Source: Neophaeotheca triangularis (lineage: Eukaryota). Taken from it: 64,000 nucleotides of DNA. The DNA lies in NCBI GenBank assembly GCA_054600435.1, contig BAAIJX010000005.1:310001-374000 (forward strand), given 5' to 3'. The notes beneath the pieces are model-generated. The model was not told the DNA's origin. It searched no databases and saw only the letters and a program-made list of their open reading frames with translations. Shown here one piece after another: positions 2,901 to 49,424 of the stretch. Every line of letters starts with the position of its first letter. The stretch's first letter is position 1. The translations under genes were made by a program, and so were the position numbers.

Positions 2901-5900
2901 ATGTCGGACGTCCTGAACCTCGACAGCGTCTTCAACAAACAGCATGAGATAACGTGAGTCTTGACCCGATATTCACCATATTACCATCAAAACACAGCCC
3001 TTCCTTCGCTCTATGCCTGAAGCCGCTTCAATTGATGGAAATGTCGCGTGTAACCATGTTCTGATGCCCGACTGCAGCTCCATCTTGTCGCAGCGCCAAG
3101 CCTCACTTCGCGCCCTCTACGCAGTCACAAGCCTCGTAGACAACAACGCCGATCTGTCAGCGCTATGTGACCCGGGCACCTCGCCGCCGGCCGCTTCTGA
3201 TGAAGCTGCTTGGTTAAAGGCGAACAGTATTTCCAGGTATGTCTAGTTGCTCCCCCCGATACAATCCATGTCATTGCCGTCGCATTCGACACTAACGTCG
3301 CTCGCAGCGGCTTCAACGACGATACGCTGCCTTACCCAAAGATACCCCACGATGCCCCCATATACGACGCAAACCGTAATAGATCATCCGAGCCCTCCAC
3401 CGGGCAAGCGCAAACTGATGCGACCGCCCATGCGCTCGCTAGTGATGCCCCCGTAACTGCGTCGAACACCCCCGGTACTGCTGAGGACGCGATGTCCGCC
3501 CCGATCTTGCAACAGCCCAGCGATGTGCTGTCAGGAAGCGAGAGGCATGACATTCTTACGTCGCGCGCCACTCCCAAGTCACCCACCCCTAAGGAGGTCT
3601 CTACCGCCATGCCGGCCCAGATTGCGCAGCCCGAGCCCGAAGAAGAAGCTCAACTATCTTCGGCGACAAAGCAGCTGCTCGACCTTGAGACGCCCAAGTC
3701 CTCAGCTAAGACGGTTCACCTGCCACCGCAAAAGGTCCAGGAAGAGCGTCTGCGCGAGCGCGAGCGCGAGCAGGAACACGAAAAGAACAAGCAACCGGAG
3801 CCAGAGCCTGCAAAAGGGACACGCTTCGCGCCGGCTTCATCACAGACGCACAACGAGCTCGCCTCATCTCCATCTTCAACCGTCGGAGCGTGGTCTGCCA
3901 CTACGCCCATGCCAGCGCAAGGTTCTCCCGATACTTCCCCTGACTCTGAGCCGGGCCACCTCGATGTCGAGCCTCCAAAGGATCTTAGGCCAAGTCCGAG
4001 GGAGCAACTGGAAAAGGAAAGCCATGACAAACATCTGGCAGCTCAGAAGGAGATTGCCAGGCAGCAAGCGATGGGGGATGTCACGACACCTGACGATCAG
4101 CTCCGATGGGAGGAACGCGAAGCAGCCGCACGGGATGCAGAGGAGACAGCGGCAAAGGAAGATGCCAAAGGTCCGGAGCCAGACCGTGACACCGTAATGG
4201 GAGATACGGAGGCCGAGCAGGTTACAGTAGCATTGGAGGCTGAACCGTCGGTCGGCGACTCGCAACCTCCCGCGCCAAGCAAAGAACCATTACAACCTAA
4301 GCCCTCTTCAGAGCATTCCTTGAACCAGGACCAAGGTTACCATTCCCAGGCAGCCGCCGAAGATGATGACAACATCACCGTCACCCCTCGAACACGCGCG
4401 CCACTGGAGGCTGACGTGCGGAGCAAACAAGAGACAAATGCGAATGAGACTTCTGATATGGCACCGCCAGCTCAAACACCTTCCGCGCCGTTCAGTGGTC
4501 AATTACGAAAAGAATCAAGCTCCGGTCTGTTGGCCCCGAGCCCTCACATTTCACCTGCTCAGGCTAGGAGAAGTTCGTCGGATGCCTCACAAACGGAACC
4601 GGCCCCTTTCATGACTGCACGCCACCCTCAAGACAGACCTTCGAGCTCGCATGCCATGCAGACTCCACGCAAAACGAGGCGAACTTCTTTGCCGTGGTCC
4701 CCGCCAAAAGTCACCCCTGACTTTAAGACCTTGTCTGCTCTTGAAGGCGCCGAGAACGATCCCGATCGAGACTATCTCGAGCCTCTGTTCAGAACGCAGG
4801 CCCATGATTCTGGTAGCATTCCGACCAAACGATTGACCGACTTGGTCCGATCAGCCTCCAAGACTCTTGGCACCGAGGACCACTTTACTCAACTACACGA
4901 GCGTACCGATTACAACATCTTGAAACGTATCTACCATCTCCAGAATGCCAACAAGTGGTCGTTGAGACAGATGCAACACTGCAAGGAGCCTGAGCAGCCA
5001 GCCAGCCATCTGGACCACATGATGGCTGAGATGAAGTGGATGCGCAAGGATTTTAAGGCCGAGCGAAAGATGAAGAAGAGCATCTGCGCATGGCTTGCAC
5101 GTAGGTGTCAGGACTACGTGACAGCTACGCCAGAAGAACAGCAAGAGATGCGGGTATGCGTGAAGCAATCTCGGTCGCAGAAAGCCGCTGCATCCCAGCA
5201 ATCTCAAGAACAGGACTCGTTGCCAGACCTGGACTCATCCGCAGAATCGGCACCCGAGGACGAGCATCTTCCGACAACACCAGCCCAGGTAGATAGCTTC
5301 CCCCAGGGGCTCATCGTCGAGCCAGATCTTGTCGGAACTGTGGCGGATCTCAAACGAGCAGGGGTATTGACCAAAACCATCAACGACCTACCCATTGCGG
5401 AGAGGTTCCGGACCGTTCATAATGAACCTGTTCCACCAGCCCAGGCCCTCAGTCTTGTTTCGAAATTTGTGGATGGCAAGGTTGTACCGAAAGCGCCAGG
5501 GCCGCACAAGAAACGGAGCAGATACGACTACCAAGACGAAGATGAGCTGGAAGACATGGAACCACAGAACAAGCGGATCCGCAGAGAGCGTGACTTGCCA
5601 CCGGAAGAGCAAGATATATCGCTGTTTTTGCCGGAGAATAAGCACATACGCGATCGTCTTCATGCCAATAATGCCTTCAGACCACCATCTGCGGATTTCC
5701 CCATGCCCACTACAGCCTTCTACGAATCTCGTTCCGGATCCCAGTGGCTTTTCGAGGATGACCAGAAGTTGCGGAATCTCGTCAAGGACTACAGCTTCAA
5801 CTGGACTTTGATTGCGTCAGAGCTTTCCATGCCTTCAAGGTACCAGAGTTCGGCCGAACGGCGTACGCCCTGGGAGTGTTTTGAACGCTATGTCGAGATG

Positions 5901-7706
5901 GAGACGTTGCCAACAGAGATGCGGAAGACTGTGTATTTCAAGACTTGGTACCAGCGCCTGGAACAAAGTGCTCAAGCCGCAGAGCGTAAATATCAGGCTC
6001 AAGTGGCGGCGGCCCAACAAGCTCAGAACGGAGGCCAAGGATATACGCCCGTGCGCAAGAGAACCGTGCCAACTCGGGTCGAGAAGCGCCGTAGCTCACG
6101 ATATATCCGACTTGTCGATGGTTTCCGTAGAGCAGCTCGCAAGAAGGAGACGCAGGCTGCGAAGCAAGCAGAGCAGGCGCGCAACGCCAGCCAGAGGAAA
6201 TCGCAGGCAGAACCTCCGGCTCCCAGGCAATCTACCATGATGACGCCTCAGCAATTCTCTCAAAAGAGACACGAGAGAGACATGGCAGCGATAGAACACG
6301 AGCGGCAACTCCGTGTTCAGTTCATGAAACGTCAACAAGAGCAAGCACAGCGACAAAGGGCAGCGGCGCAGGGCGGTGTGCCTGGGCAGCAGCAGCAGCA
6401 GCCGCCGCAGCAGCAAAGGCCTGGAAACCCACCCGGACAAGTACCACACCCGCAGCAGCAGCCTCATGGAGGTCAAGCAGCACAGGCCCCTCGGCAGAAT
6501 GTGCAGATGGCTCAGCGTAACGGCCATCTGGCGGTTCCCCACATAGGTGCCAATGGGGTTCCTCAGGCACAAATGCGGCCAAATGGGCAAATGGCACACC
6601 CGACAGACATGCAAAGACTGGCACACGCAAACATGCAACGGAACGCTCAGCAGTACCCCAACCAACAACAATATCCGATGCCGACACCGAATATGCAAAG
6701 CCCAGGTAGCGGTGGGATGAACAACCAACAGCAACTGCAAAGCAATCAAGCTCTTCTCTCGGCTATGCAAGCTTCGCAGCGCGGGCAGGATGGCAGCAAT
6801 AACATGGCCCGCGGCGTTGCCCAAGGTAACAATCAAGATGTGGCTGCTTCGCCTAGCCAGATGCCGCCGCCTCCAACACCAAATCAAATGCCTCCTCAGC
6901 AGCTCTCGAGTGGTATGGTACCGGCAGTGGTCGCTATACGTTCGACGTTGAAGCAACAGCACCCGAACATCACCGACGAACAGTTGCAGCAACTCGTCAG
7001 CCAACAACTCAAGATGCAGTCACAGTCGCAATCTAGCAACCAACATGCGCGACAGCAGCATCAGTCAGAACAGGCTAGGATGAGTGCCATGAACGCAGCC
7101 GCTGGCTACCCCCCATCTTCTGGTGCTGGTCAAGGTTCCGTACAACAAAACCACGCGCAAGCGCCAAAGATGCAGCAGCAGTATCCTCCGAACCAAGTGC
7201 CCTACCAGAACAACCAAAGGATGCCCAGCCAACAAGCCAGTCCGTACATGAACGGCGACAGCGCAAACCAAAACGGCATGAATGGAGCCCATTCCTCTCC
7301 CCAACAACAAACCCAGCACAACACCTACGCGCGGATGATGCAACAGCAGCAGCTGCAACAACGCCAGATGAACCAGCAAATGCAGAACCTACAATCCCCT
7401 AACTCGGCAAACACACAGCTCGCTGGCAGCCCAGGGTCCCACCCGAGCCCAAACATGACAGCGACTGCGGAGTCTCCGCAGATGCAGTACGCTGGTATGA
7501 ATGGAGTGGCTGGTGGCATGAACGGGCAGCAGCAGGCTCAGCGTCCTCCGAGTCGCGGCAGCAATACGCCACAATTGCAGCGTATGGGCAGTTCCGGATC
7601 TGTGCCGCCTGCGGCCAGTATCGGACCGCAGGGTATGCAGAGCCCGAACGCGCAGCAGCAGCTTCAAGGGAGTCCAAGGAACATGCAAGCTGGGGTGGCT
7701 AGGTGA
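2901..7706 (+). CDS. EAF1: NuA4 histone acetyltransferase scaffold Eaf1/Vid21
   Basis: Exons 2901-2953, 3078-3236 and 3308-7706 join in frame across GT-AG introns. The protein has an HSA domain (RIYHLQNANKWSLRQ...HLDHMMAEMKWMRKDFKAERKMK), a SANT/Myb domain (WLFEDDQKLRNLVKDYSFNW...RRTPWECFERY) and a Q-rich C-terminus. Confidence 0.9.
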
Positions 7707-28472: not shown

Positions 28473-29696
28473 ATGTTCTCAGCCTTCTCCCTCCTCACAG
28501 TCCTGGCTACGGCTAAGGCAGCTACTATTCCGGCAGCTTTGATGCCTCGCCAGGAGATGGAACAACCCATCAATGGAAGTCTCCCTAATATTACCATTTT
28601 CGCGACGGGCGGGACCATCGCTGGCTCAGCTGGATCCAACGTCGCAACATCTGGCTACACTTCAGGGGCCATTGCTGTCCAGGCTCTTATCGATGCTGTT
28701 CCAGAGCTGCTCAACATCTCCAACGTGGATGGTGTACAGGTCTCGAACGTGGCGAGTGGTAACATCAACGACACCATCCTCCTTACGATGAACAGGGAGA
28801 TCACTGAATCTTTGGCCGTGGACTCTAACCAAGGAGCGGTTGTTACTCACGGGACCGATACACTTGAGGAGACTGCTTTCTTCCTTGATCTCACGACACC
28901 TTCGAAGAAGCCAGTCGTTGTCGTGGGCGCCATGAGACCTGCGACTGCGACGAGTGCAGACGGTCCTCTGAACCTCTACCAAGCCGTCACCCTTGCCGCG
29001 TCAGAGGAGGCCATTGGACGCGGCGCCATGATTACCTTGAACGAGTTCGTCCTATTCCACTGCGAAAGACACGAACGACCTGCTAACCACACCATTCAGC
29101 CGCATCGGCGCCCCATGGTACGTGCAAAAAACGCACGCCAACGCTTTGGACACCTTCGACGCCCCTGAACAAGGCTACCTCGGCTTCTTCACCAACAGCA
29201 TCCCGCAATTCTATTACGAGAGGGCAGCTGTGACGGGCAAGCCTTTCTTCGACATCTACCCCCTCAACCTCACCTGCCTGCCCCAGGTCGACATTCTCTA
29301 CTCCCATCAAGGTACGCATTCCATAGTCTGCAGACGAAGGAGACAAAGCTGACTCCCATCTCAGACCAGAACCCGGCTTTGATCCAAGCCTCCATTGACT
29401 CCGGCGCCGAGGGGATAGTTTTCGCAGGCGTCGGCGCCGGCGGTATCACGTCTGAGTCTTCCGAAGCCGCCCGAGAGATTTTCAACGCTACCAACGTGCC
29501 GATGGTCTTCAGCACCCGGACCATGAACGGATTCGTCTCGGGCTCTCTCGGCAGCTGGAGGATCGGTGCTTCTGACTTGAACCCTCAGAAGGCGAGGATC
29601 ATGCTGCAGTTGGCGCTTGCTACCGGGCACAGCACTGAGGAGATTGGCGAGCTGTTCTATGGGTTGCAGTCGCATGAGAGCGAGTTTGCGGGATGA
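28473..29696 (+). CDS. Secreted L-asparaginase (type II)
   Basis: Signal peptide; motifs FATGGTIAG, THGTDTLEET, GAMRP, SADGPLNL and LNPQKARIML. Introns 29045-29099 (GTTCGT donor) and 29312-29364. Confidence 0.93.
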
Positions 29697-37689: not shown

Positions 37690-40600
37690 ATGGCATACAA
37701 AGCGGATGTCAGGACGACATTCGAGCCCAGCCGGGTCATACAACCAATCTACACAGGAGGCAGTGTAGCACTCAGCGAAGATGGCAGAGTTCTGGCAACG
37801 TGTCTGGGCGAGGAGGCACTACTCACAGACTTGAACACAGGGGCACACCTAGCTCGCATTGAAGGGGTATGTTGATTCTGCAGCTCTGCCTTGACCGAGG
37901 ACTGACCGTTGACAAGTTTCTAGGACGGTGAAGCTATCACTACACTCGCGCTGACACCTGACGCCTCATTCCTTATAATATGTTCGAGATCGCTTGCCAT
38001 GCGTGTGTATATGCTGCAACAGTCGCAGACGCTGGATGAGGGGCTTGAACCGAAGCTACTTCGAACGATGAAACCGCACACTGCACCGGTAGTCACCGTA
38101 GCCGTGGATGCGACAAGCTCGTTGCTTGCTACCGGAGGCGCGGATGGTGTGGTCAAGGTCTGGGATATCAGAGGCGGATATGTTACGCACACTTTCCACG
38201 GCCACAGCGGGGTCATCTCTGCGCTGTACTTCTTCCAGGTACGAGCAGAGGAGTCTGAGCAATCGACAAAGAGCAAGAAGCGAAAGAGTAGATCGCGGAA
38301 TGAGGATGCTGAGGAGGCACAGGGCGAGGGCACAATAGGCTTCAGGCTGGCATCGGGAGCCGAGGATGGAAAAGTGCGTGTATGGGATCTTCACAAACGA
38401 AAGAGCGTCGCTACTTTGGACTCGCATGTCTCTGTCGTGCGTAGCATAAGCTACTCTTCAGAGCAGCGTCTACTGCTCTCAACCAGCAGAGACAAGACCG
38501 CGATCATGTGGGATTCCCGAAGTTGGGAGGCCAAGTCGACGATCCCTGTGCTGGAAGGTGTTGAAGCGGGGGGGTTCGTGCAATCTGGTCGCTTCTTCTA
38601 CACGGGAGGAGAGAATGCACGTCTACGGATATGGAGTACCAACGCAGGGGTTGAGATCACACAAGAACAGGGTCCTGGAGTAGAAACGGAGGCTATTCTG
38701 GATGTAATACATCACGTGGATTTGCCTTATATCCTAACGGTGCATGCTGACCAGACGCTGCAACTGCATTCTTTGGCCCCTCTGCAAGGTTCGATCACTC
38801 CCAAGGATCTACCACTCTCTCCACTGCCCGTGGTACGCCGAATCTCTGGCACGCACGACGAAGTGATCGATTTGGCATATATCGGGACGGAATGCAACGT
38901 TCTCGCGCTTGCTACCAACCTGGAAGACATAAGGCTTGTGTCGCTTGAGTCGGCGCGTCAGACAAGCCAAGCGGATGGCTCGTCTCCCTATTTTGGGGCA
39001 GATCTTGCACTCCTCAAGGGCCACGACGATATCATCATCACCATTGACACCGACTGGTCAGGCCACTGGCTTGCAACGGGCGCCAAAGACAACACTGCGA
39101 AGCTTTGGAGGCTTGATCCGGCCAACGAAGACTACAGCTGCTATGCGACACTGACCGGACATGCAGAAAGCATTGGAGCTGTATCCCTCCCAAACGCAGC
39201 TCCCCAATTTGGAAGCGCAGCCTACAGTAAGCCGCTTGAGCACCCGCCTAAGTTCATGATTACCGGTAGTCAAGACAAGACCATCAAGCGATGGGATCTC
39301 GGTGCACAGGGTAGAAGCGTGCGAGCAAATTACACTCGCAAAGCTCACGACAAGGATATCAATGCTATCGACACTTCTTTCTCGACCACATCACCAATGT
39401 TCGCGTCTGCCAGTCAGGACAAGACCGTCAAGATCTGGGATGTTGAGACTGGAGAAACCCTTGGTGTGCTTCGCGGGCATAAGCGAGGTGTTTGGTCTGT
39501 CGCATTCGCAACGCTTGATACCCCGGCCTTGACGACGTCTGAACAGGGTGGTGCAAGTAGCGCAAGAGGCATGGTCGTGACCGGAAGTGGTGACAAGACT
39601 GTCCGGATATGGAGCTTGGCAGACTATAGCTGCTTGCGCACATTTGAAGGCCACGCGAACAGTGTCTTGAAAGTAATTTGGCTTCCGGCGCCTAAAGAGC
39701 AGAACACCGCCTCCAACAAAGTGCGGAGAGGCGTCCAAGTCGCAAGCGCGGCAGGTGACGGCCTCGTCAAGGTCTGGGATGCCCAGAGCGGAGAATGCGC
39801 TGCAACTCTCGACAACCACATTGACCGCGTCTGGGCACTGGCAACCAAGCCCCAACGCAACCTCTCCCTCGAACCAACCAAACAAAAAGAAAAGCCCTCA
39901 GACACCGACATGGCCGACGCCAGCGACGAAGAGGACCAATCCACGACCGACCTGACTTCCCAATTAACCCTCGTCTCCGGCTCGGCAGACAGCACCCTTA
40001 CCTTCTGGACCGACACCACAGCCCTCACCGCCCGCGAAACCACCACCCGCGCCACCGCCCGCATAGAACAAGACCAAGCCCTGCAAAACCAAATCCGCGC
40101 CGCCAACTACCGCGAAGCCATTGTATTAGCCCTGCAACTCGACCACCCGCGCCGGCTGCTGGAACTCTTCACCGCCGTCGTCAATACCCCCGAACCCGAC
40201 GAGGCAAGTCTCACTGGCAAAACCGAAGTCGACGACGTTCTCGCCACCCTCGCCGACTCTCAACTCTGGGCCCTGCTCCGGCGCCTCAGAGACTGGAACG
40301 CCAATGCCCGCACCTACGCCGTAGCCCAGCGCGTCCTCTACGCTCTGCTGCGTCTGCATCCGAAAGAGCGGCTGGTGAATTTGCGCCGGAGACGGCAGCG
40401 CGGTGTTCAGCCTAGTGGCGGTGAGGGAGACGTGGACGCGGGGCTCGCGGAGTCGATGGCCGGGCTGAGCACGGACAGCGTGAAGAGTAAGGAGAGTGTC
40501 AAGGATGTTTTGGAGGCGCTGAGGGCGTATACCGAGCGCCATCAGGCGAGGGTTGAGAGGATGGCCGAGGAGCGGTTTGTGCTCGCTTGGGCTTTGGGCG

Positions 40601-40710
40601 AGATGGGAGAGGCGGGGGATGGTAGTGGACTGCTGTTGGGTGATGGTGGTGGTGGTGTTGGGCTGGGTGTGGAGAAGGGAGCCGAGATGATGGCTGTGGA
40701 TGGTGTATGA
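37690..40710 (+). CDS. UTP13: SSU processome WD40 protein Utp13/TBL3
   Basis: N-terminus TTFEPSRVIQPIYTGG; intron 37867-37923; many WD40 repeats (AHDKDINAID, LRGHKRGVWSV); C-terminal Utp13 domain (LRDWNANART, AYTERH). Confidence 0.93.
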
Positions 40711-44332: not shown

Positions 44333-45339
44333 ATGGGTTTGGCTTGCACTGTGTGTCTAGGTAGCGACTGGCAGAGCTGGACGAGGCGTAAAAAGTTGCC
44401 AGCGGAAGCTTGTGAAGAGGAAAGATCCTTCAGGGCGATTAACGGATGACGGCGACGGCGAGTGGTGGACTGGAACAGTTTCAAAGGCTTCGAAGGTTCC
44501 GGTAGCACTTGCAGTGTAACATACAGTTAGTTAGTTGTTGGTATGGCTATAGGAATGCTAATCTGAGCACCTGCGGAGAGACGATTTGAACATTTTCTCC
44601 AACTTCACTGCCCTGCCCAAGCCTGCCCTGCCCTTCAAAAGTCCTTCTTTCCTAATGCGGAACTAGCGCGTGGATGTACCCGAGACGGCGGCCACCACAC
44701 CCATTCTGCCTCTTATCATAAGGTAAGCAAGCTATACATGTAAGTTACTAGTAAGTAACGTAACGTGCACCTTGAGTACGATGTAAGCGATACCGATGTC
44801 TTCCGATACCTACACAAACCTCACTCACTCTCTACCTCCTACAGGCCGGGAGAGTGATAAGGTACCTTACCTACCTACCATTAATATTTAGCCAGCTACC
44901 GGTAGCCAGCACCAGCCCCGAGCAAGCCGAAGAGAACAGCTGCAGCTTCTCTCAGCTTGCGGCGTTTTGTTCTCAGCTTCCCTTCTCCTTTTCCAAGCAT
45001 GTGAAAATGCAATGCTTCGGATTGTCTTCGTGCGTGGTGACTTGACATGCAACCTGCTCGACGACCCACCAAGCCTTCTCCCCTCTTCTCAACGTCCTCT
45101 CACCTCGACCTCGACCTCCTCCTTCTTTTTGCTCTCTTCTTGATCCTCACAAAACTTCAAACTGCCATCGTCGCTTTGTCCCGCTTTGTTCCGTCGAAAC
45201 GCCGCAGAATACCCCGAGCATTGACCAGGAACGAACAACTCCTTTGTCACAAGACGCCCGTAGCATATATCCGTCACCTCCGCCGCAGTCAGCACACCCT
45301 CCTCAACCACCAGCAGGCCACCGTCTGGCAAACAGCAAC

Positions 45340-46494
45340 ATGAGCCACCCGGCCTCACACGAAGACAATGGCGGCGCATCCCTCAAACCGCAACCCCGAC
45401 CCCGTCGACCCTTCGAGCTGGGCTCCTATAGCACGCCCTCGTCCGCACCCTCCACACCACCTGCCGAGCCCTCATCAGGCGGACTCCAAGCTCCCGACAA
45501 CTATGTAGACGGCGCCACCACCCCGGCCAAAACCAAAAGCATTTTAAACCTCACCAGCTCCACCCTTCTCGGCATCTACAGCCCCACCGGCTACGCAGCC
45601 GACAGAGACGAACCTAGCACACCCTGGGGCACTGGCGCCGAAACCCCCGTTGACTCCCGTACCGGCTCCATGGACGTCTCGCGTACAGACATCCCTAACA
45701 CGGTCTTACAAAAGGGGCCCAACGGCACGCACAGAAGGAGACGGAGTACAATCACCCCGCAGAGCTTCGCGCACCACAAACCCCGACGCGGTTTCAAAGG
45801 CTACTTCCTTCCCCTCGCCGGCCGCACGATCTCGCTCTTCGCAATCGGCATGCTGTACGGCCTGCTCGTCAGCCACTTGCACGACAAGCGCGACATGGCG
45901 CCCGTCAAAGTCGAGGGCATCGACCGCTCGAGCTGGCTGTACATGGCTTTCTGGGGCGTGGCGGGCGTGGCGCTCGGGCAGGCACTGCCGTGGATCGACT
46001 GCTTCTGGGCGGCGGAGGAAGACGGTGAGTGGGAAGCTGTCGAGGACCGCGAGAAGAGCAGCAGCAATGTAAGGGGTACAGGAGGTTGGAACGACGTGGT
46101 CAGGAGCGTGGGAGCTTTCGTCGGCATCGCTTTCGCTATCCGCAAGCTGCCCTGGCAATCTACGCTGCAATTATCCTTGACGCTGGCGCTCGCCAACCCA
46201 GCCGTATGGTACCTCATTGACAGATCACCCCCGGGGTTCTTGCTCTCAGCCACCGTAGCTCTCAGCGGAACGGCGCTGCTGCTGGGCATCAACCCGGCTT
46301 TAGTGCCCTCGCCCGGCCCAGCAGAAGCGATGCGCGGTCACATCGGGGGCACGCAATTGGGAAGCGAGGAGCTAGTCTTCGGGCTTTTCAGCCACGAGTC
46401 CGTGGGCGTCGCGACGTGGATTGCGAGCGTGCTGTTCGTGAGCTCGGTGTGCTTTGGCAATATCGGGAGGAGATTGGCGCCGCAGAAGAGCTGA
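45340..46494 (+). CDS. INSIG/Nsg family sterol-regulatory membrane protein
   Basis: Motifs SILNLTSSTLLGIY, VRSVGAFVGIAFAIRKLPWQSTLQ, LANPAVWYLIDRS and WIASVLFVSSVCFGNIGRRL. First ATG is at 45340. Confidence 0.88.
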   Translation: MSHPASHEDNGGASLKPQPRPRRPFELGSYSTPSSAPSTPPAEPSSGGLQAPDNYVDGATTPAKTKSILNLTSSTLLGIYSPTGYAADRDEPSTPWGTGAETPVDSRTGSMDVSRTDIPNTVLQKGPNGTHRRRRSTITPQSFAHHKPRRGFKGYFLPLAGRTISLFAIGMLYGLLVSHLHDKRDMAPVKVEGIDRSSWLYMAFWGVAGVALGQALPWIDCFWAAEEDGEWEAVEDREKSSSNVRGTGGWNDVVRSVGAFVGIAFAIRKLPWQSTLQLSLTLALANPAVWYLIDRSPPGFLLSATVALSGTALLLGINPALVPSPGPAEAMRGHIGGTQLGSEELVFGLFSHESVGVATWIASVLFVSSVCFGNIGRRLAPQKS

Positions 46495-47208
46495 TGGCTG
46501 GAGTATATAGATTGGCTATGGTATTCATATCGATACTACGGCCGCTGACATGGCGGATGCAATTTGGTCCAGACCTCTCTCTCTGCCCGGAGAAGCTGCT
46601 TGCCACGAAACTCTCACCCTTGCACCCCATGATGAAGCGCCCCGAGCCGGCCGGTTGATACATGTTGGGAATCACTGTGCAATACCCCGTCGATACATGT
46701 TGTCCACGCCATCTCCCGGGCTTCTGCCACGCTGTCGCCCGTTGTAGTATTATACAACATGACCGACAAAAAGTGCCTACCCCTCTCCCACCAAGGCTTA
46801 CGGCTACAGTATCGACCGCGAGTTGAAAAGCCACCGCCGAGAGAACGAAGTACTCGAGGCAACCAGGTTGAATACAAGCGTCCCCAGCAGATACCTGTCT
46901 CTCTTGATGTGAAACCTACCTGTGTCCACAGGGGAGCCCTTGGACTTGTAATGGTTGGCTTAGCTCAGTCGCTAAGAGGTGAGAAGGCACAAGCATGGCC
47001 GAGAGGCTGGAATCCAGGCAACAGACCGATCGTTGCCTTTTCCGGTTTACCTCATTCTTCAGTCTCGAAGACAATTGTCCCTGTAGTGCAATACAAGAAC
47101 GAGAAAATTTGAGCCGGAAACCAAAAGATAATCAGCCCAAAGTGAGATATGATGCTCAATCGACAGCTCAAGCACACACGCTGAAGAGTCGGAAGAAACA
47201 CAAAAAAG

Positions 47209-47215
47209 AAAAAAA
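47209..47215 (-). terminator. Pol III poly(T) terminator of the tRNA-Val gene
   Basis: T7 run on the minus strand about 15 nt after the discriminator base, followed by a T6 run. Confidence 0.75.
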
Positions 47216-47229
47216 GAGAAGTATCATCG

Positions 47230-47402
47230 TGATTTCCGGCGGGTTCGAACCGCCGACCTTCTGCGCCCACATTGCTGCTTTGGAATCGCGGCTTGATATG
47301 TTAGGCAGACGTGATAACCAACTACTGTGGCGATTTGTTAGTTAACTGTGAGACTTAAGTTTGTATGAGGGTGGTTGGGAGAGTACGAACCACCAGGAAA
47401 CC
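47230..47402 (-). tRNA. tRNA-Val(AAC) interrupted by two introns (33-nt canonical anticodon-loop intron; 66-nt spliceosomal-type D-stem intron)
   Basis: Joining 47402-47391, 47324-47299 and 47265-47230 gives a 74-nt cloverleaf: GGTTTCC TG GTGT AGTTGGTTA TCAC G TCTGC CTAACAC GCAGA AGGTC GGCGG TTCGAAC CCGCC GGAAATC A. Anticodon AAC is at 47302-47300. Confidence 0.9.
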
Positions 47403-47727
47403 CGTGTCGCAACTTGAGATGTGTTGCATGAAGACCCAGGGGGTGCCAGATTGTATATGTTGATCAAAAAACAATTGTGCCGAGATCTGGCCGTGGGTTG
47501 TGGAGACGTTCAAAACGTGCCTTTCGTGGGATGGGTTTGAACAGGGGTGGGGATGTCAGGCTCTGACAATAATGTGTTGGTTCTTCTTTCCTTGTCGCTG
47601 CAGTGGGTGGTTCCTTTTTTTCCCGTTGCCGTTGTCCCTCGCATTCCAGTCGCTGTGCTAGCACATCCCTTTCAAGCTTTGCGAGATGGAGCGATGCATT
47701 TTTCCACGTAGCAATAGCAGTGAGAAT

Positions 47728-48128: not shown

Positions 48129-49160
48129 TCAGCTAAGCATCACAATGGCTATGTGCAAGAAGCCGTCGCTGTAACTCGCAGCTCTACCCAGTTCGGCCAA
48201 ATTGGCAGCCATAGGTACCCCAGCTCCATGCAACACGGGTGTAGCAAGAAGAGGGTTCCTTCGACTGGGAAAAAGAGGTCGAAGGGTGTCGTTCAACGCC
48301 GTGCCCAGCGTTTGGGGTTGTTTCGAGGGAAGATTCAGCGGAACCAGGGATTGCACGACTCGAATGTGACCAGCCGTCGGGGCGCTTTCGGCCGCTGTAT
48401 CGGAGGCCGCTTGGTTGGAGGCACTCGGGAGGTAGATTTTCAAGGGCACGTGGCGAAGCTGGACTCCTGGGGGGTTGAGCAATTTGTTGTTGATGGAGTT
48501 GAATAGCTTCATGTCGTCTTTGCTTGTATTAGTAACGAATAGGTGTTCACATAGGGGCTGCTAGATGAGGAGAATAGTCTCACGTTCAACAATTGACCGC
48601 CACAAGCTATCGGAATCCTCTTTGCTCATTGACATGATAGTCTTGGCATTTCCGTTTCGGATGAAGTCGGCCTCCTTGACGCTGTTGATGTACGAATCGA
48701 GCATGGTTCTTCCTTCAGGATCAAGTTGCACAAGGACATCGTTGGGGAATTCGGTGTAGTGAACCGTAAGCCTAAAGGGCAGCTGCTCAATTTCTTTGCC
48801 ATCCTTCTCGATAGGTTTCGCTCGTCCTAGTGCCTCAACTTCCTCAGCGCTCACGAGCTCAGCTCCAGACAGCAGGTCGTAGAGCAGACCGACTGGATAG
48901 TGCCACTTTAGAGGTATGTCTTCGAACGAAAGCCAGGCATCGTACGGTGAAGCTTCCGGATCGATTAGGGAGGCCTTGAAGAAGGCATGCAATTTCGGTA
49001 AAAGGAAGGAAAGATAAGACAATCGCGGATACTGGATCAGGTATGCTTCTGATTCATCATATGTCCGGCAGTCTGAAGGTGATAAGCGTATTTCCAAAGG
49101 CAGCGAACCATCCCATATCTTGGCCTGTAGCGTCGAAATGGCCGCGGGTGAGGCTGACAT
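48129..49160 (-). CDS. ATG5: Autophagy protein Atg5
   Basis: Motifs IWDGSLPLEI, PRLSYL, PLKWHYPVGLLYDL and YINSVKEADFIRNG. Intron 48583-48518, then LRHVPLKIYLP, QTLGTAL and DGFLHI. Confidence 0.95.
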
Positions 49161-49424
49161 TACCGCGGGTAATGGGTATTGTCTTCTAAGTACATCGATG
49201 CCGGGGTCATAGAGAGAGGAGGAGGCATCATGTTTCCAAGGTTGGAGTGAGGTTACAGTGAGACCGATTGCGTGAAGGTCGTCGCCAGCAGCGTGGAAAC
49301 AAATGGCCTGAGGCAGGAACGGCGGTTAGCGCGTAAAGTGGCAGCTTGCCGACGTCGCGTCGCCGGAGAAGCTGTACGCGTTTCTCACAAACATCGCAAA
49401 AAGAAAGCCATACGAGCAGATACG

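Follow-up and report, generated by a model that had tools for sequence, protein, structure and literature searches.

A spliceosomal-type intron in the D-stem of a fungal tRNA-Val(AAC) gene, and analogous split tRNA-Val genes in another ascomycete lineage

Can a transfer RNA (tRNA) gene carry the kind of intron that interrupts protein-coding genes and still be a working gene? The question is raised by a 64,000-nt stretch of the Neophaeotheca triangularis genome (contig BAAIJX010000005.1, positions 310,001 to 374,000), which is called the window here; coordinates without a contig or locus name refer to it. A tRNA-Val(AAC) gene on the minus strand of the window is interrupted between tRNA positions 12 and 13, in the D-stem, by 66 nt with the splice signals of an mRNA intron. 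The initial annotation of the window pointed out this insertion and proposed that the spliceosome may process the transcript. The reading favored here, with a probability of about 60%, is that the insertion is a real spliceosomal-type intron (U2-type GT-AG) in a working tRNA-Val gene that is probably transcribed by RNA polymerase III (Pol III); this judgment is drawn from sequence comparison.

The whole gene (47230..47402, 173 nt) consists of three exons and two introns, as read from the sequence and as called by ARAGORN after scripted removal of both insertions. All of its parts are on the minus strand. Exon 1 (47391..47402, 12 nt) contains tRNA positions 1-12, which are the 5' strand of the acceptor stem, U8, G9, and the first three bases of the D-stem. 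Intron 1 (47325..47390, 66 nt) starts with the 5' splice site GTTCGT (47385..47390), contains the branch-site consensus ACTAAC (47337..47342), and ends with the 3' splice site CAG (47325..47327). The branch A is at 47338 and is followed by 13 nt up to the 3' end of the intron. The positions and signals originally annotated (ACTAAC at 47342-47337 and CAG 9 nt later, within a 66-nt insertion at 12/13) are confirmed on the minus strand. Exon 2 (47299..47324, 26 nt) contains positions 13-37, i.e., the rest of the D-arm, the 5' strand of the anticodon stem, the anticodon AAC, and A37. Intron 2 (47266..47298, 33 nt) is a canonical 37/38 tRNA intron of the tRNA-splicing-endonuclease type; ARAGORN recognizes it as an anticodon-loop intron, and its outer (anticodon) helix has 5 bp. 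It had been overlooked in the initial annotation, which described the other arms of the tRNA as intact; they are intact once this second insertion is removed. Exon 3 (47230..47265, 36 nt) contains positions 38-73, which include the 3' strand of the anticodon stem, the variable loop, the T-arm, the 3' strand of the acceptor stem, and the discriminator A. The B box within the T-arm is exact, GGTTCGAACCC (47241..47251).

To what class does the 66-nt insertion belong? GT...AG segments that join long open reading frames (ORFs) were screened in the window, and 12 of them were picked as candidate mRNA introns. Their length is 51-77 nt in nine of the 12 cases. A convincing candidate starts with GTNNGT, has a CTAAC or CTGAC branch whose A is followed by 10-18 nt (10-15 nt where the motif is CTAAC), and finishes with YAG. 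The hexamer GTTCGT opens the candidates at 29045 and 46434, and the first of these (29045-29099) combines GTTCGT, CTAAC, 13 nt, and CAG exactly as intron 1 does. The exon that precedes it encodes an asparaginase (Pfam PF00710, E 4e-42). The likeness in size and signals to local mRNA introns, including the donor shared with the asparaginase intron, had been noted before and extends to the branch site, the 13-nt distance, and CAG. The boundaries of intron 1 can be placed in two ways with an identical product, and one of the placements is GT...AG. Among 200,000 random 66-mers of the window's composition, two carry GTNNGT...CTRAY...YAG at either placement, a chance of about 1e-5. Three features of a U2-type GT-AG intron (GTNNGT donor, CTRAY branch, and YAG, with an intact product on excision) are found in intron 1. 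Because its size and signals match and the chance of such a match is about 1e-5, intron 1 is, by sequence, an ordinary mRNA-type intron of this genome, and it is almost certainly of the spliceosomal type in both sequence and origin.

One further claim about the insertion was true and carries no information. Intron 1 has no run of four or more T (T4), which would stop Pol III; a T4 run is present in just two of the 12 candidate mRNA introns, and its absence from intron 1 is therefore uninformative on compatibility with Pol III. A second copy of the 66-nt intron was not found by blastn-short in the window or in the metagenome loci described below.

Does removal of intron 1 leave a normal tRNA? 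Standard scanners had been expected to miss this gene, and they do: ARAGORN calls no tRNA in the window, and Rfam reports none there, neither at its gathering score nor at E<=1. The insertions were therefore removed by coordinates in a script, and ARAGORN was rerun on each product. From the intact unspliced gene it calls nothing. When both insertions are removed, it calls tRNA-Val(aac), which bears out the expectation that GT/AG excision restores the Val D-arm. Removal of intron 1 alone yields a tRNA call that includes an anticodon-loop intron of 33 nt, set at 34/35, and bears the name Pro(tgg). This label results from the 34/35 setting; the canonical 37/38 placement gives Val(AAC). When intron 2 alone is removed, the result is a poor Val(aac) model that uses a mismatched acceptor strand from intron 1. 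Direct reading of the fully excised product finds U8, A14, G18G19, A21, U33, A37, G53, T54-C56, A58, and C61 all present, together with the G15-C48 pair and the discriminator A73, i.e., a canonical Val(AAC) cloverleaf. Decay of conserved positions, stems, or terminator, one mark of a pseudogene, is absent from the window gene. The minimum-energy fold of the precursor minus intron 1 is a cloverleaf whose anticodon stem is extended into an anticodon-intron helix; as modeled, it looks as substrates of the eukaryotic endonuclease usually do.

The gene is the sole tRNA-like gene detected in the 64 kb. A screen for T-arm plus acceptor stem gave it as the single candidate in the window, and across the sequences screened it gave Val genes only. 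The B-box motif has seven matches in the window with at most one mismatch, where 7.9 are expected, and only that of the tRNA-Val gene is exact; the six others do not look like tRNAs.

Are there other genes of this kind? A search for tRNA halves parted by GT...branch...YAG, an idea of the initial annotation, was carried out with a pattern made of exon bases only, on either side of a 45-75-nt gap, which left GT, AG, and the branch site free. It found seven metagenome loci (L001-L007), all of which are tRNA-Val(AAC) genes. The same pattern has no match in 596 Gb of prokaryote genomes, and viral contigs have none with each of two patterns, this one included. L001, L002, L004, and L007 are one locus in four contigs. 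Three distinct loci were thus compared, the L001 type, L003/L006, and L005, with L006 and L007 cut by contig ends. The tRNA-Val(AAC) genes lie at L001:2584-2764, L003:352-480 (-), and L005:625-807 (-).

In all seven loci, 52-55 nt are inserted at 15/16, with the donor GTYAGT, the acceptor TAG, and, at 9-13 nt from the end, a CTAAY branch. This insertion has four equivalent boundary placements, one of which is GT-AG, and a short direct repeat TAG...TAG at the junctions. In five of the seven (L001, L002, L004, L007, and L005), another 54-55 nt interrupt the anticodon stem at 28/29, with GTATGT, AACTAAC or TATTAAC, and CAG; the boundaries of this second insertion are unambiguous. Candidate mRNA introns of these loci themselves are scarce and doubtful, which leaves no basis for comparing their signals with those of the insertions. 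A 37/38 intron is found in none of the seven. Scripted excision converts each of the five full-length copies to the same 74-nt Val(aac), and exon 2 of the window gene is identical to that of the metagenome genes at 25 of 26 nt. ARAGORN calls none of the seven loci as they stand (0/8 with the window gene counted). All four distinct upstream flanks have a TATA box at -37..-30 (alignment A1), and T4-T8 runs follow each of the three complete gene types at no more than 20 nt from its 3' end. The T-loop of the metagenome genes has A54 (ATCGAGC) instead of T54, the same in all copies, which weakens the B-box consensus.

For a UCH/Ubp12 ORF next to the tRNA gene in L005, the closest homologues with a name come from Dothideomycetes and allied Pezizomycotina and are only 41-50% identical, a level that implies a different, divergent ascomycete (Pezizomycotina) lineage. 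The Protein Atlas hinted at a basidiomycete host for L005, with the phylum known for two members only; this was set aside, since the nearest named homologues are from Dothideomycetes/Pezizomycotina. The intron positions (15/16 and 28/29 versus 12/13) also differ, which points to independent gains.

How have these genes changed since they separated? Their exons show no difference in 74 nt among the three distinct loci. Between distinct loci, the interiors of the 15/16 introns are 50-63% identical, those of the 28/29 introns 58%, the 60 nt upstream 47-57%, and the 40 nt downstream 53-61%, all in optimised alignments and all near the level of unrelated sequences. Despite this drift, the distinct loci retain the hexamer at the 5' splice site, the branch motif, YAG at the 3' splice site, and both the length and the position of the introns. 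At closer range, the introns of L003 and L006 are 91% identical with differences that spare the splice signals, and the two sites that distinguish L001 from L002 are both in introns. Such a pattern is what would be expected for expressed genes that need their introns removed, not for dead copies, and the split tRNA genes of the metagenome fungus seem to have been kept by selection. The initial annotation had named loss of the splice signals in orthologous loci, with decay of the tRNA, as the mark of an insertional pseudogene. This is not so in the metagenome genes, where the signals are kept and the tRNA is intact; these genes are analogues, not orthologues, of the window gene.

Partial copies are found beside the intact metagenome genes. 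5'-truncated tRNA-Val copies exist at L003:943-1028 (+) and L006:581-660 (+). Exon 1 and the intron's 5' half are missing from them; what they retain is the last ~27 nt of the 15/16 intron, in which the branch site and TAG are included, together with exons 2-3 and the flank that has the T run. They imply that the tRNA-Val gene was duplicated at the DNA level, intron included, leaving partial dead copies beside intact ones. Another kind of partial copy is 40 nt long and inverted; it repeats the 3' part of tRNA-Val (from the 3' strand of the anticodon stem to the 3' end) at L001:2497-2536 (-), and likewise at L002:827-866, L004:2397-2436, and L007:167-206. Oriented head to head with the full gene, it lies 48 nt upstream of it and reaches the stretch with a TATA-like box. 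About 870 nt downstream of the tRNA gene, L001 also contains a retrotransposon Pol-like ORF (3636-5987, +; Pfam Pol_BBD, E 4e-10), which may be a tRNA-associated retroelement insertion.

What else could the window gene be? It could be an insertional pseudogene, in which an introner-type or reverse-spliced intron recently killed one redundant tRNA-Val(AAC) copy; the exons would not have decayed yet, and any transcript would stay unmatured. This is unlikely; the points in its favor are as follows. There is one instance in the window lineage, and its A box is split. Insertions in the D- and T-arms are mostly taken as pseudogenes in the available part of a 2014 review of tRNA introns (PMC4090602). 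5'-truncated and inverted partial copies adjoin the metagenome genes, so such loci do rearrange. Set against these points, the window gene has intact exons and an intact B box and terminator, and neither set of its splice signals is damaged. In the other fungus, at least three loci have kept the insertion until the intron bodies were nearly saturated with changes, with 0/74 exon differences and intact signals. This persistence implies that such split genes are not necessarily dead.

A second alternative changes the polymerase and not the nature of the intron. The tRNA could be part of an RNA polymerase II (Pol II) precursor, made from its own TATA promoter or as the tail of an upstream mRNA, which would be spliced co-transcriptionally and from which the tRNA would be freed by RNase P and RNase Z. 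This alternative, too, requires the spliceosome. In all three contexts that can be judged, the tRNA gene follows a protein gene that has the same orientation, at 727 nt after the stop codon of ATG5 (window 48129-49325, -), 240 nt after that of UCH/Ubp12 (L005:1048-4725, -), and 705 nt after that of an ORF in L001 (674-1879, +). Three cases are too few to mean much, and the chance probability of this placement is 1 in 8. A distance of 700 nt is long for a fungal 3' untranslated region. The A box is broken in every copy, A54 gives the metagenome genes a weakened B box, and their TATA boxes at -37..-30 suit either polymerase. However, the window gene has an exact B box. Both it and the three complete metagenome types also have T4-T8 runs at most 20 nt beyond their 3' ends, like ordinary Pol III tRNA genes. 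Transcription by Pol II is thus improbable.

Another possibility is that intron 1 is cut by the tRNA splicing endonuclease through a bulge-helix-bulge (BHB) motif, as in Cyanidioschyzon merolae and in nucleomorphs, where non-canonical introns of the D-arm and the anticodon stem occur (PMC4090602, in the part available). The motif was taken to be two 3-nt bulges with the cut sites, a 4-bp helix between them, and flanking helices, and it was scored at every equivalent boundary. Intron 1 of the window gene can pair three of the four positions of the central helix. The flanking helices, however, are lacking (outer 0, inner 1 bp), and the intron is at 12/13, not at 37/38. The central helix of the metagenome introns has 1-3 of 4 bp, except for one placement in L003 with 4/4, where the paralogues have 2/4. 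What is conserved is GTNNGT, CTAAY, and YAG, none of which a BHB intron needs. As the motif is absent from intron 1 and not conserved among the metagenome paralogues, the BHB reading of intron 1 is rejected as very improbable. An assembly or contig artefact, or an unrelated insertion that resembles an intron by chance, is hardly credible: the window is a single assembly, but the chance of a signal match is ~1e-5 and the L001-type gene has been assembled independently in four metagenome contigs with intron polymorphisms only.

For a working spliceosomal-type intron in the window gene, we infer transcription, polymerase, spliceosomal excision, and the order of the steps from the sequence, as follows. 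A nuclear tRNA-Val(AAC) gene of a Dothideomycete would have gained the intron, and the active intron gain through introner-like elements in this class is a plausible source. A precursor of ~200 nt would be transcribed, most likely by Pol III, with TFIIIC on the intact B box and an end at the oligo-T terminator. Of the Pol III signals, the window gene has the exact B box and the T7/T6 runs, and its A box is split. Because of the split, placement of TFIIIB would depend on the remaining 5' part or on upstream sequence; help from upstream is plausible where a TATA box is present, as in the metagenome copies, and weak in the window gene. Within the nucleus, the spliceosome would then recognize GTTCGT, CAG, and the branch site ACTAAC and excise intron 1, which would rebuild the D-stem. 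The tRNA splicing endonuclease and ligase would next remove the 37/38 intron, and the ends would be processed. Removal of intron 2 should come later because the D-arm and the body of the tRNA form only after intron 1 has left, and the eukaryotic tRNA endonuclease is thought to measure from the tRNA body. With intron 1 and a canonical 37/38 intron in one gene, the pre-tRNA would need two different splicing machineries. The spliceosomal proposal of the initial annotation is thus partly supported: intron 1 has all the sequence hallmarks of the spliceosomal introns of the genome and no BHB, and the 37/38 intron was missed.

Several points weigh against this pathway. A single such gene is known in the window lineage, and a recently disabled copy would look alike. 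The metagenome genes are analogues in another lineage with different intron positions, not orthologues of the window locus. The A box is cut in two by intron 1 after position 12, and what this intron places next to the downstream half makes a poor A box (1/4 at positions 8-11), so that normal start selection directed by TFIIIC is doubtful. The sole TATA-like element of the window gene is weak and located at -55..-52. Exon 1 has 12 nt plus the leader, which is short for recognition of the 5' splice site. In the minimum-energy fold of the whole precursor, pairing covers most of both signals: the unpaired probability is 0.20 for the 5' splice site and 0.02 for the branch site. Finally, insertions in the D- or T-arm of eukaryotic tRNA genes are usually regarded as pseudogenes, each one of many synonymous copies, in the accessible text of PMC4090602.

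The flanks of the window gene were read directly. On the 3' side, T7 and T6 runs that resemble a Pol III terminator are present (47202..47215, -), the first beginning 15 nt past the end of the gene. On the 5' side, the weak TATA-like element is found within ACATATACAA (47454..47457, -), more distal than the -37..-30 boxes of the metagenome copies; this is weak evidence. Farther upstream on the same strand, 63-68 nt from the gene, there is a T6 run (47465-47470, -), which would block Pol III read-through from upstream. The junction of exon 1 and intron 1 (47382-47392, -) resembles the first six bases of a B box and matches 8/11 of the consensus; this is probably a coincidence of the GTTCGT donor.

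The tRNA gene is located between INSIG (45244-46494, +) and ATG5 (49325-48129, -), both assigned by Pfam. It begins 727 nt downstream of the ATG5 stop codon on the same strand and converges on INSIG. The Utp13 ORF (37999-40710) shows 100% identity to a protein listed at NCBI under Neophaeotheca triangularis. Its second-best match is in Cladosporium (72% identity), and its other matches are from Capnodiales-like Dothideomycetes; the host of the window gene is a Dothideomycete, a black-yeast-like fungus. Elsewhere in the window, the sole Rfam match at E<=1 is to the archaeal C/D-box snoRNA sR53 (1300-1356, -; 23.3 bits, E 0.39, gathering score 49). It is inside a 521-aa ORF and is almost certainly a chance match.

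How does a split tRNA gene compare with known systems? Spliceosomal introns in fungal non-coding RNA genes are the closest parallel. They are reported, in the parts of two papers available, for U6 (a Pol III gene), U1, U2, and U5 snRNA, U3 snoRNA, and rRNA; the hosts named include U6 of Schizosaccharomyces pombe and other fungi, and U1/U2/U5 of Rhodotorula hasegawae (PMC5855946; PMC5832005). As in those cases, a short GT...branch...AG intron of the host's ordinary type is present in the gene of a small structured RNA, and the insertions are lineage-specific with varying positions. As with U6, a Pol III transcript would be handled by the spliceosome. The intron of S. pombe U6 contains the B box of the gene, and the tRNA genes of S. 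pombe use upstream TATA elements. Three things set the tRNA-Val gene apart. Intron 1 splits an internal promoter element (the A box), it shares its precursor with a tRNA intron of the protein-enzyme type, and its host is a tRNA, which is in none of the host lists in the sections seen of PMC5855946 and PMC5832005. A tRNA is not close to the spliceosome's active site, and therefore the reverse-splicing argument made for U6, U2, and U5 is not transferable.

Another parallel is given by the non-canonical tRNA introns of C. merolae and of cryptophyte and chlorarachniophyte nucleomorphs (PMC4090602, portion available). These also interrupt the D-arm or the anticodon stem of eukaryotic nuclear-type tRNAs, sometimes with more than one intron per gene, and are missed by scanners. 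Those introns, however, are 3-24 nt long, or depend on a BHB and are cut by the endonuclease, whereas the introns described here are 52-66 nt long with GT, branch, and AG and have no conserved BHB.

Where could such an intron come from? Introner-like elements and intron gain in Dothideomycetes were reportedly described by van der Burgt et al. in 2012. Introner-like elements and recent intron gain in this class are also cited in the available part of PMC5647799. They belong to the same fungal class and are a plausible source of a new intron with complete signals, and the TAG...TAG direct repeat at 15/16 is in keeping with them. They differ in that they are described for protein-coding genes, and the 66-nt intron has no second copy in the 64 kb or the metagenome loci.

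The initial annotation knew of no described system of this kind, and a full-text literature search (with most subscription journals outside its reach) likewise found no description of spliceosomal introns in tRNA genes. A 2023 tRNA review (PMC10275265) and a 2025 paper (PMC12530127), as far as their text was available, treat spliceosomal and tRNA introns as separate classes. In these two and in PMC4090602, again in the parts at hand, tRNA introns are removed by protein enzymes, in contrast to spliceosomal splicing. The term "spliceosom" is absent from the accessible text of the 2014 tRNA-intron review (PMC4090602), and the U6 review names snRNA and rRNA hosts only in its available part (PMC5855946). 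What is described here is an intron of the mRNA type within the gene of a small, probably Pol III-made RNA, and such a host is new and unexpected. That spliceosomal introns form a fourth, undescribed class of tRNA introns, gained independently at a minimum of three positions (12/13, 15/16, and 28/29) and kept by selection in tRNA-Val(AAC) of Dothideomycete-like fungi, is given slightly better than even odds, mainly because of the metagenome paralogues.

What would this mean for the fungi concerned? If the reading is true, the supply of a major tRNA depends on the spliceosome acting on a Pol III transcript. The window gene would pass through the spliceosome in series with the protein-only tRNA splicing pathway, so that one small RNA would be served by both systems. 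If these introns are spliced, the spliceosome contributes to tRNA biogenesis, and U6 is no longer its lone known Pol III client. Such a gene, with constraint on every exon base and an internal promoter disrupted by the intron, would then offer a setting for the study of intron gain. Since scanners miss the split genes (ARAGORN all eight, and Rfam the one in the window), tRNA repertoires and the inferences on codon decoding drawn from them may be incomplete for such fungi; if the reading is true, fungal tRNA gene sets are systematically under-called by present scanners. The sequences suggest that some fungi may need the spliceosome to make a tRNA.

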